From the IMG/VR virus record IMGVR_UViG_2695420822_000001: a stretch of 10,970 bases of DNA; one strand, written 5' to 3'. The notes beneath the pieces were generated by a model. It did not search any database. It saw only the letters and a list, made by a program, of their open reading frames with translations, and was not told where the DNA came from. A program made the translations under genes and the position numbers. Each line of letters opens with the position of its first letter. Within the stretch, counting starts at the first letter, position 1. Origin of the DNA: a virus. Lineage: Duplodnaviria; Heunggongvirae; Uroviricota; Caudoviricetes. Positions 2,638 to 10,970 of the stretch are shown here, one piece after another.

Positions 2638-2678
2638 CCATCACAAAAGCCATTCCCTACAGAGTGGCTTTGATAATG
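2638..2678. repeat. Hairpin-containing direct repeat, copy B
   Basis: cca-tcacaaaa-gcc... with perfect 7-bp stem aaagcca (2646-2652) / tggcttt (2665-2671), 12-nt loop, followed by the same gataatg. Same flanking words as copy A, about 297 bp downstream. Confidence 0.5.
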
Positions 2679-2693
2679 GCTTATACCCTACAC

Positions 2694-2719
2694 GGGATAA
2701 CTTAACTGATATCCCTTTT
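2694..2719 (+). terminator. Terminator-like hairpin (+ orientation)
   Basis: Stem gggata (2694-2699) / tatccc (2710-2715), 10-nt loop, followed by tttt on the + strand. On the - strand it is not followed by a U-run, so it reads as a + strand terminator. Confidence 0.35.
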
Positions 2720-2736
2720 AAAGGATAAAGGTATTC

Positions 2737-2951
2737 NNNNNNNNNNNNNNNNNNNNNNNNNNNNNNNNNNNNNNNNNNNNNNNNNNNNNNNNNNNNNNNN
2801 NNNNNNNNNNNNNNNNNNNNNNNNNNNNNNNNNNNNNNNNNNNNNNNNNNNNNNNNNNNNNNNNNNNNNNNNNNNNNNNNNNNNNNNNNNNNNNNNNNNN
2901 NNNNNNNNNNNNNNNNNNNNNNNNNNNNNNNNNNNNNNNNNNNNNNNNNNN
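2737..2951. other. Run of N (215 nt), undetermined or masked sequence
   Basis: Contiguous n characters; content cannot be assessed. Confidence 1.
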
Positions 2952-3028
2952 CACTTCTGGAGTGAATCCAGATTAAACATCTCATTGCTGATGCTTGATA
3001 TTGAGCATTTTGCGCGCGGTAAGGGGCT

Positions 3029-3626
3029 NNNNNNNNNNNNNNNNNNNNNNNNNNNNNNNNNNNNNNNNNNNNNNNNNNNNNNNNNNNNNNNNNNNNNNNN
3101 NNNNNNNNNNNNNNNNNNNNNNNNNNNNNNNNNNNNNNNNNNNNNNNNNNNNNNNNNNNNNNNNNNNNNNNNNNNNNNNNNNNNNNNNNNNNNNNNNNNN
3201 NNNNNNNNNNNNNNNNNNNNNNNNNNNNNNNNNNNNNNNNNNNNNNNNNNNNNNNNNNNNNNNNNNNNNNNNNNNNNNNNNNNNNNNNNNNNNNNNNNNN
3301 NNNNNNNNNNNNNNNNNNNNNNNNNNNNNNNNNNNNNNNNNNNNNNNNNNNNNNNNNNNNNNNNNNNNNNNNNNNNNNNNNNNNNNNNNNNNNNNNNNNN
3401 NNNNNNNNNNNNNNNNNNNNNNNNNNNNNNNNNNNNNNNNNNNNNNNNNNNNNNNNNNNNNNNNNNNNNNNNNNNNNNNNNNNNNNNNNNNNNNNNNNNN
3501 NNNNNNNNNNNNNNNNNNNNNNNNNNNNNNNNNNNNNNNNNNNNNNNNNNNNNNNNNNNNNNNNNNNNNNNNNNNNNNNNNNNNNNNNNNNNNNNNNNNN
3601 NNNNNNNNNNNNNNNNNNNNNNNNNN
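3029..3626. other. Run of N (598 nt), undetermined or masked sequence
   Basis: Contiguous n characters. Hides the 3' part of the minus-strand DUF1398-like gene and whatever lies between it and position 3028. Confidence 1.
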
Positions 3627-3929
3627 GAAAACCCCTGCTGTAGCAAGATTTTTCCTGTATTCGTAAAATGATAACTCTCCTGATTTGAATCCTTTTAAGG
3701 TGGCTTCTATAAGGCATTTATTTTTTGAAAATCTTACATTTACAACCTTACCCTGTCCTTTTATTAAAACCGTATTATCGTTTTCAAGAACAAGATGAAT
3801 ATTCTCTGTGGCTAAATAGTAAATGTAATGTGAGACATTGTGACGTTTTAGTTCAGAATAAAACCAGTGATAGTTTAAATTATTTCGCACTTTATCGAAT
3901 ATTTGTTTAAAAATGGCAACCTGAGCCAT
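3627..3929 (-). CDS. DUF1398 family protein (YbcV-like, annotated in prophages as putative envelope protein); N-terminal about 100 codons visible, 3' end lost in the N-run
   Basis: Minus-strand ORF reading [101 protein letters not shown]. Preferred start is the ATG at 3929-3927, which has a GGAAGG Shine-Dalgarno 7 nt upstream; an in-frame ATG at 3944 has none. Resembles DLP12 YbcV/DUF1398 as I recall it. Family proteins are about 130-180 aa, so the gene should end inside the N-run. Confidence 0.6.
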
Positions 3930-3986
3930 TGTAGTACCTTCCATGTGATATGAGGGGGCGTAGTCTGCACGATTATCTAAATTGCT

Positions 3987-4220
3987 TCAATCTGGTCTAA
4001 CCTGTTTTCTGAGCAATTCAGTAATGTCACTCTTTTCTTTGTTTGCTTCAGGCGAAACTCTTTTTTCTGAGCACAGTCTCCGGCGGCAGGCTTCAATGAC
4101 CCAGGCTGAGAAATTCCCGGACCCTTTTTGAACAAGAGCGATGTTAATTTGTTCAATCATTTGGTTAGGAAAGCGGATGTTGCGGGTTGTTGTTCTGCGG
4201 GTTCTGTTCTTCGTTGACAT
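3987..4220 (-). CDS. Small ribbon-helix-helix-like protein (DUF3950 / YlcI-like), putative DNA-binding regulator
   Basis: 77-aa minus-strand ORF MSTKNRTRRTTTRNIRFPNQMIEQINIALVQKGSGNFSAWVIEACRRRL... Basic N-terminal arm, then a strand-helix-helix pattern like the Arc/MetJ/CopG fold. Sits directly upstream of, and co-oriented with, the DUF1398-like gene (43-bp spacer). Confidence 0.6.
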   Translation of the reverse strand: MSTKNRTRRTTTRNIRFPNQMIEQINIALVQKGSGNFSAWVIEACRRRLCSEKRVSPEANKEKSDITELLRKQVRPD

Positions 4221-4389
4221 GAGGTTGCCCTGTATTCAGTGTCGCTGATTTGTATTGTCTGAAGTTGTTTTTACGTTAAGTTGATGCAGATCAATTAATA
4301 CGATACCTGCGTCATAATTGATTATTTGACGTGGTTTGATGGCGTAGATGCACGTTGTGACATGTAGATGATAATTATTATCATTTTGC

Positions 4390-4590
4390 GGGTCCTTTCC
4401 GGCGATCCGACAGGTTACGGGGCGGAAGGCGCGCGGGTTTTCGCTATTTATGACAATTTTCCGGTTTAAGGCGTTTCCGTTCTTCTTCGCCGTAACCTAA
4501 TGTTTTTATTTAAAACACCCCCTGAAAAGAAAGGAAACGACAGGTGCTGAAAACGGGCTTTTTGGCCTCTGTCGTTTCCTTTCTCTGTTT
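4390..4590. other. cos: cos site (cosQ-cosN-cosB) of lambda type, with variant cosN core
   Basis: Near-identical to the lambda genome ends as I recall them: ...gggtcctttccggcgatccgacaggttacg (lambda right end, contains cosQ) | GGGCGGAAGGCG (12-nt cohesive-end position, 4420-4431) | cgcgggttttcgctatttatga... cosB terminase-binding repeats: R3 cgtttccgttcttcttcg (4472-4489), R2 agaaaggaaacgacag (4528-4543) and R1 ctgtcgtttcctttct (4569-4584), R2 and R1 inverted. An A/T-rich IHF-like site lies between R3 and R2. The Nu1 start follows at 4609. Confidence 0.85.
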
Positions 4591-4608
4591 TTGTCCGTGG
4601 AATGAACA

Positions 4609-5128
4609 ATGGAAGTCAACAAAAAGCAGCTGGCTGACATTTTCGGTGCGAGTATCCGTACCATTCAGAACTGGCAGGAACAGGGAATGCCCGTTCTGCG
4701 AGGCGGTGGCAAGGGTAATGAGGTGCTTTATGACTCTGCCGCCGTTATAAGATGGTATGCCGAAAGGGATGCTGAAATTGAGAACGAAAAGCTGCGCCGG
4801 GAAGTTGAAGAACTGCGGCAGGCCAGCGAGACAGATCTCCAGCCAGGGACTATTGAGTACGAACGCCATCGACTTACGCGTGCGCAGGCCGACGCACAGG
4901 AGCTGAAAAATGCCAGAGACTCCGCTGAAGTGGTGGAAACCGCATTCTGTACTTTCGTGCTGTCGCGGATCGCAGGTGAAATTGCCAGTATTCTCGACGG
5001 GATCCCCCTGTCGGTGCAGCGGCGTTTTCCGGAACTGGAAAACCGACATGTTGATTTCCTGAAACGGGATATCATCAAAGCCATGAACAAAGCAGCCGCG
5101 CTGGATGAACTGATACCGGGGTTGCTGA

Positions 5129-5154
<26 letters not shown>
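4609..5154 (+). CDS. nu1: Terminase small subunit Nu1
   Basis: 181 aa, MEVNKKQLADIFGASIRTIQNWQEQGMPVLRGGGKGNEVLYDSAAV..., essentially lambda gpNu1 (winged-HTH N-terminus). Same length as lambda Nu1 (546 nt) and same position relative to cosB. Confidence 0.95.
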
Positions 5155-8835
<3,681 letters not shown>

Positions 8836-8855
<20 letters not shown>

Positions 8856-10155
8856 TCTCCCGCATATTGCCAGCATGGCTTTTAATGAGCCGCTGATGCT
8901 TGAACCCGCCTATGCGCGGGTTTTCTTTTGTGCGCTTGCAGGCCAGCTTGGGATCAGCTGCCTGACGGATGCAGTATCCGGCGACAGCCTGACTGCCGGA
9001 GAGGCACCCGCGGCGCTGGCGTTATCCGGTGATGATGACGGACCACGACAGGCCCGCAGTTATCAGGTAATGAACGGCATCGCCGTGCTGCCGGTGTCCG
9101 GCACGCTGGTCAGCCGGACGCGGGCGCTGCAGCCGTACTCGGGGATGACCGGTTACAACGGCATTATCGCCCGTCTGCAACAGGCTGCCAGCGACCCGAT
9201 GGTGGACGGCATTCTGCTCGATATGGACACACCGGGCGGAATGGTGGCGGGAGCATTTGACTGCGCTGACATCATCGCCCGTGTGCGTGACATAAAGCCG
9301 GTATGGGCGCTGGCCAATGACATGAACTGCAGCGCAGGTCAGCTGCTTGCCAGTGCCGCCTCCCGGCGTCTGGTCACGCAGACCGCCCGGACAGGCTCCA
9401 TCGGCGTCATGATGGCTCACAGTAATTACGGCGCTGCACTGGAGAAACAGGGCGTGGAAATCACGCTGATTTACAGCGGCAGCCATAAGGTGGATGGCAA
9501 CCCCTACAGCCATCTACCGGATGATGTCCGGGAAACATTGCAGTCCCGGATGGATGCAACCCGCCGGATGTTTGCACAGAAGGTGTCGGCATATACCGGC
9601 CTGTCCGTGCAGGCTGTGCTGGATACCGAGGCTGCAGTGTACAGCGGTCAGGAGGCCATTGATGCCGGACTGGCTGATGAACTTGTTAACAGTACCGATG
9701 CGATCACCGTCATGCGTGATGCACTGGATGCACGTAAATCCCGTCTCTCAGGAGGGCGAATGACCAAAGAGACTCAATCAACAACTGTTTCAGCCACTGC
9801 TTCGCAGGCTGACGTTACTGGCGTGGTGCAAGCGACGGAGGGCGAGAACGCCAGCGCGGCGCAGCCGGACGTGAACGCGCAGATCACCGCAGCGGTTGCG
9901 GCAGAAAACAGTCGCATTATGGGGATCCTCAACTGTGAGGAGGCTCACGGACGCGAAGAACAGGCACGCGTGCTGGCCGAAACCCCCGGTATGACCGTGG
10001 AAACGGCCCGCCGTATTCTGGCCGCAGCACCACAGAGTGCACAGACGCGCAGTGACACTGCGCTGGATCGTCTGATGCAGGGGGCACCGGCACCGCTGGC
10101 TGCAGGTAACCCGGCATCTGATGCCGTTAACGATTTGCTGAACACACCAGTGTAA
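8836..10155 (+). CDS. C: Head maturation protease / scaffold protein gpC (ClpP/SppA-like serine peptidase fold)
   Basis: GTG start at 8836 preceded by gaggaggagaag, giving VTAELRNLPHIASMAFNEPLMLEPAYARVFF..., lambda gpC-like. 1320 nt, same as lambda C. The track ORF from 8701 is an upstream in-frame extension inside B and is not the start. Confidence 0.9.
9550..10155 (+). CDS. nu3: Scaffolding protein Nu3, in-frame internal start within C
   Basis: In-frame ATG at 9550 (MDATRRMFAQKVSAYTGLSV...) gives a 606-nt nested gene sharing the C stop, the same length and arrangement as lambda Nu3. Confidence 0.75.
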   Translation: MDATRRMFAQKVSAYTGLSVQAVLDTEAAVYSGQEAIDAGLADELVNSTDAITVMRDALDARKSRLSGGRMTKETQSTTVSATASQADVTGVVQATEGENASAAQPDVNAQITAAVAAENSRIMGILNCEEAHGREEQARVLAETPGMTVETARRILAAAPQSAQTRSDTALDRLMQGAPAPLAAGNPASDAVNDLLNTPV

Positions 10156-10164
10156 GGGATGTTT

Positions 10165-10497
10165 ATGACGAGCAAAGAAACCTTTACCCATTACCAGCCG
10201 CTGGGCAATAGTGACCCGGCTCATACCGCAACCGCGCCCGGCGGATTGAGTGCGAAAGCGCCTGCAATGACCCCGCTGATGCTGGACACCTCCACCCGTA
10301 AGCTGGTTGCGTGGGATGGCACCACCGACGGTGCTGCCGTTGGCATTCTTGCGGTTGCTGCTGACCAGACCAGCACCACACTGACGTTCTACAAGTCCGG
10401 CACGTTCCGTTATGAGGATGTGCTCTGGCCGGAGGCTGCCAGCGACGAGACGAAAAAACGGACCGTGTTTGCCGGAACGGCAATCAGCATCGTTTAA
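10165..10497 (+). CDS. D: Capsid decoration protein gpD
   Basis: [43 protein letters not shown]..., lambda gpD-like, 333 nt as in lambda. The track ORF begins 6 nt upstream at MFM; the MTSKE start corresponds to lambda D and has taaggg as Shine-Dalgarno. Confidence 0.9.
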
Positions 10498-10518
10498 CTT
10501 TACCCTTCATCACTAAAG

Positions 10519-10539
10519 GCCGCCTGTGCGGCTTTTTTT
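10519..10539 (+). terminator. Hairpin plus T-run in the D-E intergenic region (possible attenuator or partial terminator)
   Basis: Stem gccgc (10519-10523) / gcggc (10528-10532), loop ctgt, followed by ttttttt (10533-10539). Confidence 0.35.
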
Positions 10540-10552
10540 ACGGGATTTTTTT

Positions 10553-10970
10553 ATGTCGATGTACACAACCGCCCAGCTGCTGGCGGCAAATGAGCAGAAA
10601 TTTAAGTTTGATCCGNNNNNNNNNNNNNNNNNNNNNNNNNNNNNNNNNNNNNNNNNNNNNNNNNNNNNNNNNNNNNNNNNNNNNNNNNNNNNNNNNNNNN
10701 NNNNNNNNNNNNNNNNNNNNNNNNNNNNNNNNNNNNNNNNNNNNNNNNNNNNNNNNNNNNNNNNNNNNNNNNNNNNNNNNNNNNNNNNNNNNNNNNNNNN
10801 NNNNNNNNNNNNNNNNNNNNNNNNNNNNNNNNNNNNNNNNNNNNNNNNNNNNNNNNNNNNNNNNNNNNNNNNNNNNNNNNNNNNNNNNNNNNNNNNNNNN
10901 NNNNNNNNNNNNNNNNNNNNNNNNNNNNNNNNNNNNNNNNNNNNNGCCTGAGTTTAACGGACACTCCTTC
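10553..10970 (+). CDS. E: Major capsid protein gpE, 5' part; interrupted by an N-run and running off the window
   Basis: MSMYTTAQLLAANEQKFKFDP... matches the lambda gpE N-terminus, 56 nt after D as in lambda. Only 21 codons are readable before the N-run at 10616. The 25 nt after the N-run are not in frame if the N-run length is taken literally. Confidence 0.8.
10616..10945. other. Run of N (330 nt), undetermined or masked sequence inside gene E
   Basis: Contiguous n characters. Confidence 1.

Follow-up and report, generated by a model that had tools for sequence, protein, structure and literature searches.

The cos site contained in IMGVR_UViG_2695420822_000001, of which we analysed a stretch of 10,970 nucleotides (the window), has surroundings very close to those of phage lambda and a cohesive end that departs from it, raising the question of whether such a site can still be cut and packaged. 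An earlier note on this DNA had reported that 5 of the 12 overhang positions differ from lambda, and had offered two readings, a natural variant tolerated by a lambda-type terminase or a cosN that has decayed in a defective prophage. Alignment with lambda J02459 confirmed both the lambda cosN given there and the number of differences, with no shift of the alignment. The lambda record starts with GGGCGGCGACCT while window positions 4420-4431 read GGGCGGAAGGCG, and the two 12-mers align without gaps between identical flanks, CAGGTTACG on the 5′ side and CGCGGGTTTTCGC on the 3′ side. In its wider context the window reads GGGTCCTTTCCGGCGATCCGACAGGTTACG GGGCGGAAGGCG CGCGGGTTTTCGCTATTT; the start of J02459 in longer form is GGGCGGCGACCTCGCGGGTTTTCGC. 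The changes from lambda to window are 7 C>A, 8 G>A, 9 A>G, 10 C>G and 12 T>G, with C11 retained, and a sequence search located GGGCGGAAGGCG as a single copy in the window, at 4420-4431 on the + strand. We consider this most probably to be a working lambda-type cos site carrying a minor natural allele of the cohesive end that is tolerated by lambda-type terminase, a reading to which we assign a probability of roughly 0.88. The elements of the site and the adjoining terminase genes, as placed in the window, are as follows.

4390-4396, + strand: cosQ heptamer GGGTCCT, the packaging termination signal, identical to lambda in sequence and position
4397-4419, + strand: cosQ-cosN spacer, ending ...TTACG 5′ of the top-strand nick, with one change from lambda (4403 T>C)
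4420-4425, + strand: left half of cosN, overhang bp 1-6, GGGCGG, identical to lambda in the alignment; mutations in this half are deleterious (PMC4669245)
4426-4431, + strand: right half of cosN, bp 7-12, AAGGCG where lambda has CGACCT, five of six bases differing and C11 the same
4432-4433, + strand: CG dinucleotide 3′ of the bottom-strand nick (bp 12/13), conserved in the alignment
4469-4484, + strand: cosB R3, the TerS anchoring site, bp +50 to +65, identical to lambda in sequence and in distance from cosN
4527-4542, - strand: cosB R2, an inverted R box, identical to lambda and placed by analogy to the lambda and phage 21 annotation
4570-4585, + strand: cosB R1, identical to lambda in the alignment
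4609-5154, + strand: Nu1 (TerS), 181 amino acids, K48R, A75T and L132I relative to lambda, 98.3 % identical
5129-7054, + strand: A (TerL, ATPase and cos endonuclease), 641 amino acids, T151S, D185E and T466I, 99.5 % identical to lambda

The lambda-like flanks described in the earlier note were borne out, cosQ, R3, R2 and R1 being unchanged and Nu1 and gpA carrying three changes each. Window positions 4058-10615 and the lambda record PV340536, which spans cos, align without gaps and are 97.8 % identical (146 of 6558 positions mismatched). The cosQ heptamer, whose lambda counterpart we take from the Feiss-lab literature to be bp 48473-48479, lies about 30 bp upstream of the top-strand nick, as expected of a lambda-type cos site, and the cosQ-cosN spacer has the same length in window and lambda. 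CG pairs are present at both nick positions, 12 bp apart, in the arrangement ...TTACG/GGGCGGAAGGCG/CGCGGG..., as in lambda. The interval between cosN and R3, the latter extending over bp 50-65 (PMC9026076), contains no indel relative to lambda, and the R3-R2 spacer, which holds the IHF site I1, carries two substitutions, at +97 and +102. Lambda therefore shares with the window cosQ, the spacer length, the CG pairs, bp 1-6, C11, R3, R2, R1 and a Nu1 start at about bp 190, and differs from it in overhang bp 7-10 and 12. J02459 is one base longer than the window downstream of cosN (220 versus 219 aligned bases), placing its Nu1 start at 191 and not 190. The extra base is presumably a G in the R2-R1 spacer (AAAGCGAGGC; compare window 4553-4556 with J02459 bp 131-140), where PV340536 reads AAAGCGAGC and aligns to the window without a gap; the likeliest cause is a discrepancy in the old sequence or a difference between strains.

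Within the 6.5 kb alignment of window and lambda, the five mismatches in six bases of cosN form the densest cluster of differences. By a binomial estimate with a background rate of 2.2 %, the chance of such a cluster arising anywhere in the alignment is about 2e-4, and its improbability at the background rate points to a distinct allele block as opposed to scattered point drift. The overhang G+C content is 10/12 in both variant and lambda and the predicted Tm values lie within 1.5 °C of each other (46.3 versus 47.8 °C), so cyclisation should be unaffected. The 16-bp cosN contains four rotationally symmetric pairs in the window versus five in lambda. As to the source of the hexamer, AAGGCG also stands at the start of R3 (4468), but with six + strand copies in the window a copying event from that position is indistinguishable from chance.

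The position of the changes within the overhang accords with the published tolerance of cosN. Feiss et al. 2015 described many mutations of bp 7-12 with minimal phenotype, C11G having none while the symmetric change G2C lowered yield by about 10-fold, and attributed this left/right asymmetry to the right half being the nearer to cosB, where R3-bound TerS positions TerL (PMC4669245). According to the same study cosQ, the left half of cosN and the CG pairs beside each nick are conserved while no selection maintains bp 7-12 (PMC4669245), and a right-half mismatch does not, therefore, exclude membership of the lambda-type cos class. This also means that the new bearing on terminase nicking specificity anticipated in the earlier note was overstated, as right-half tolerance was already published (PMC4669245). 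Natural variants relative to lambda are documented for N15 and phiD326, at bp 9 and 12, and for the Salmonella phage Gifsy-1, at bp 8, 9 and 11 (PMC4669245). The Gifsy-1 changes are confined to the right half, as in the window, although they occupy a different set of positions that includes bp 11, which the window keeps (PMC4669245).

We checked the N15 cohesive end in sequence as GGGCGGCGTCCG. The N15 and phiD326 ends are natural right-half variants of the 12-nt lambda-type end that have T12>G and keep C11, like the window, and terminases of lambda and of N15 specificity cut them with equal efficiency. N15 combines its two differences from lambda (9 and 12) with a single-R cosB and a TerL about 65 % identical to that of lambda, whereas the window combines five differences with a near-lambda terminase and a lambda cosB. 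Counting against a functional allele, five simultaneous changes exceed the two to three of the published natural variants, the rotational symmetry of cosN is reduced, and T12>G adjoins the bottom-strand nick, although N15 shares that last change. Substitutions restricted to bp 7-12 with the other constrained parts of cos retained are nonetheless the pattern of the N15/phiD326/Gifsy-1 class. A dedicated survey of the natural history of cosN has reportedly been made by Vahanian et al. 2017 (Virology 509:140).

The earlier note had raised the possibility that the variant recurs, and it does so in IMG/VR, metagenome, E. coli and plasmid sequences. The exact 32-mer identified 14 IMG/VR contigs with the AAGGCG allele, and a pattern in which the left half and the spacer were left free identified 49, alongside at least 118 lambda-type contigs. 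GGGCGG and the ACG flank were invariant in 49/49 of the AAGGCG contigs even though the search did not constrain the left half, while the 19-nt cosQ-cosN spacer occurred in 14 versions, all with the terminal ACG. A further 31 contigs with the allele were present among JGI/ENA metagenomes (human gut, food and others), and 23 plasmid records in PLSDB carry it. In complete E. coli genomes, searched with a 45-nt query that seeds only where overhang bp 1-11 match exactly, AAGGCG was found at 170 places in 159 of 5426 genomes and the lambda type at 8393 places in 4474, the variant thus accounting for about 2 % of such sites. This recurrence rules out a sequencing artefact as the source of the variant cosN. 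A collection with one genome per species yielded no match to the exact 32-mer and lambda-type sites only with the degenerate pattern, and a full-text literature search for the variant 12-mer returned no relevant paper.

Exact lambda-type cos sequences occur in assemblies of Raphidiopsis brookii D9, Aeromicrobium sp. and Archangium violaceum and in a 39.8 kb 'plasmid' of Alicyclobacillus fastidiosus (loci L148-L151), where they most likely represent contamination by lambda or vector DNA. In the 56 kb metagenome-derived viral contig IMGVR_UViG_3300045988_113976 the variant cos is present twice, once in each orientation (L215 and L217), and the contig could represent two adjacent prophages or an assembly chimera.

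The allele is unevenly distributed among replicons. Plasmids bear 16 of the 170 AAGGCG places in E. coli genomes as against 20 of the 8393 lambda-type places, and the plasmid records with AAGGCG, in both E. coli genomes and PLSDB, are mostly non-mobilizable replicons of about 46 kb. One of them, pRHBSTW-00124_4 (CP056845), is an N15-like linear plasmid prophage with a protelomerase, SopAB, a complete lambda-like head and tail gene set and the AAGGCG cosN. The plasmid enrichment suggests that the allele is at home in a Ravinvirus-like lineage with lambda-type terminase.

At least two types of TerS adjoin AAGGCG, lambda Nu1 and, at locus L154, a protein 47 % identical to N15 gp1. A third arrangement was seen in IMGVR_UViG_3300039332_000035 (L011), where a cosB of the phage 21 type lies downstream of the variant cosN and 21 gp1 breaks off after 30 codons, at which point it is joined directly to the interior of a lambda-type A gene; the element, a deletion derivative, can encode no full terminase. 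Rare right-half alleles, each in one to two contigs among the matches listed, comprised AAGGCT, AAGCGT, AGACCT, TGACCT, CGACCG, CAGACG and CTGACG. The single change C7>A, giving AGACCT (GGGCGGAGACCT), is present in the isolated phage PhiR70_1 (PV340577) and in one IMG/VR contig (L167), in the latter beside a TerS 47 % identical to N15 gp1 and with a lambda-type gpA.

We identified two phage records with exactly this cosN, YDC107_1 (CP025712, Ravinvirus) and PhiR46.1 (PV340565). Together with pRHBSTW-00124_4 they share with the window GGGCGGAAGGCG followed by CGCGGGTTTTCGC, a lambda-type cosQ, R3 and Nu1/gpA. PhiR46.1, a telomere phage resembling N15, encodes a gpA and a Nu1 that share 99.5 % and 93.4 % identity, respectively, with those of lambda; it and pRHBSTW-00124_4 carry telL/telR or a protelomerase and ParAB or SopAB, and YDC107_1 belongs to the same genus, Ravinvirus. 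The primary paper on the PhiR phages is said to be Brenes & Laub 2025 (Cell Host Microbe 33:1004). The supplement of PMC13190303 names PhiR46.1 among temperate phages that were isolated; the study includes efficiency-of-plaquing assays on a panel of lambda-related temperate phages, and from it PhiR46.1 is known here as isolated and listed. No contig, whether among the 31 from metagenomes or those from IMG/VR, ended exactly at the variant cos, and among phage records we found none that begins with the variant end.

In contrast to PhiR46.1 and pRHBSTW-00124_4, the window passes from lysis to head genes through a junction of lambda/21 type, as is usual in integrated lambdoid prophages. The complete E. 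coli genome that matches it best covers only 79 % of its left part. Upstream of cos it encodes a phage-21-type holin, a lysozyme, Rz, a KilA-N protein, a YbcV-like ORF and a DUF3950 ORF, a gene set that is a typical lambdoid late-region junction. The KilA-N protein, which also has an ORF11CD3 domain, is encoded between Rz and cos (1588-2085, + strand) and shows a weak match to the PADLOC candidate defence family PDC-S22. A 320-amino-acid ORF lies in the moron region that separates the lysis genes from cos (2982-3944, - strand). Its first 107 amino acids match the YbcV/DUF1398-like phrog_413 while the remaining ~210 gave no Pfam, PHROG or PADLOC family match, and an overlapping ORF of 358 amino acids in another frame (2641-3717) had no matches whatever.

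An improbable alternative is that selection maintains CGACCT and AAGGCG as a dimorphism, defining two compatibility classes of cohesive ends that would limit productive recombination and act as a weak reproductive barrier when lambdoid and N15-like phages co-infect a cell. A chromosome cut from a hybrid concatemer would carry five end mismatches and would fail to cyclise, so that rare and intermediate alleles would be selected against. The strongly bimodal spectrum in IMG/VR is consistent with this, with at least 118 contigs of CGACCT and 49 of AAGGCG against the one to two contigs of each rare allele among the matches listed, as is the enrichment of the variant on plasmid prophages. A mismatch of only 2 nt between ends already cuts viable yield by about 4-fold (PMC4669245). 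AGACCT and AAGGCT moreover resemble single-switch chimeras such as nick-translation repair of a heteroduplex cos might yield. However, neutral drift together with hitch-hiking in a lineage that has done well, and later spread through recombination, would give the same pattern, and the allele counts include clonal sampling, the lambda-type count in IMG/VR being a lower bound.

Decay of cosN in a defective prophage, which would prevent proper nicking and self-packaging despite intact head genes, we regard as highly unlikely. In its favour, the densest cluster of differences in the whole alignment falls in cosN, most occurrences of the allele are in prophages that may or may not be active, and some carriers are defective. 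The latter include the deletion derivative L011 and a lambda-like prophage beside ybhC in E. coli APEC E14033 (NZ_CP126948; L177, 26151-38452), which has the same variant cosN and an interrupted capsid gene. The major capsid gene of that prophage is split by an insert of ~11 kb that encodes an integrase, a primase and SSB as well as a major capsid protein and a decoration protein of its own, and judging by this gene content the insert looks like a capsid-forming PICI-type satellite inside gene E. Decay would however strike cos at random, whereas the constrained elements are untouched and the tolerant half alone has changed. The same hexamer is found in more than 250 independent sequences on varied backbones, with the left half fixed while the spacer varies, and the allele is carried by an isolated temperate phage and by N15-like plasmid prophages with complete gene sets. 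Taken together, Nu1, A, W, B, C and D differ from lambda by 114 nucleotides and 23 amino acids, with no stops or frameshifts; changes that are mostly synonymous in this way argue for purifying selection on the head genes and against decay. The second of the two readings in the earlier note is accordingly left unsupported.

We compared the terminase proteins of 20 loci with the variant and 42 with the lambda-type cosN, all encoding full-length gpA, and found no residue of gpA or Nu1 that co-varies with the cosN allele. The closest was T466I of gpA, present at 13/20 variant and 9/42 lambda-type loci; the C-terminal part of gpA, in which T466I lies, carries the endonuclease activity. Both alleles were found with the same proteins (two identical gpA and four identical Nu1 sequences), indicating that one enzyme lives with either site. 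That AAGGCG is read by a co-adapted terminase of new packaging specificity, and would not be cut by that of lambda, is the least probable of the explanations considered, since the T466I association is incomplete (T466 occurs at seven variant loci and I466 at nine of lambda type), identical gpA and Nu1 proteins accompany both alleles, the allele also lies beside a TerS only 35 % identical to the window Nu1 (best match N15 gp1, 47 %), and lambda-specific and N15-specific terminases show no cosN specificity (PMC4669245).

A natural variant tolerated by lambda-type terminase, the first reading of the earlier note, is by comparison well supported by changes that affect only the tolerant bp 7-12, by recurrence on varied backbones and by the isolated carrier PhiR46.1. 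In such a working lambda-type cos site, Nu1 bound to R3 at the lambda distance from cosN would position gpA on cosN, where its nicks would fall after ...TTACG on the top strand and at bp 12/13 on the bottom strand. We infer these nick positions, and the competence of the site for packaging, from the near-identity to lambda terminase and from the presence of the allele in an isolated phage. Nicking would leave complementary 12-nt 5′ overhangs, 5′-GGGCGGAAGGCG on the left and 5′-CGCCTTCCGCCC on the right. As both ends of a packaged chromosome are cut from copies of one cosN in the concatemer, they are always mutually complementary, leaving the overhang free to change wherever the terminase does not read it. 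Published genetics and biochemistry show bp 7-12 to be this unread region, since in the right half it is the cosB anchor and not the local sequence that directs nicking. Recombination has probably spread the allele among integrated prophages of lambda type and linear plasmid prophages of N15 type.

The window adds an unusually divergent natural allele to the documented variation of the cosN right half, the underlying principle being already published, together with population figures for that allele, which makes up about 2 % of such E. coli sites and is enriched on N15-like plasmid prophages. Predictors of cos sites or genome termini that match GGGCGGCGACCT miss phages with this allele, and prophages with an AAGGCG cosN should not be annotated as packaging-defective. 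If selection for compatible ends does maintain the dimorphism, cosN would provide a modestly interesting non-coding isolating mechanism in phages.
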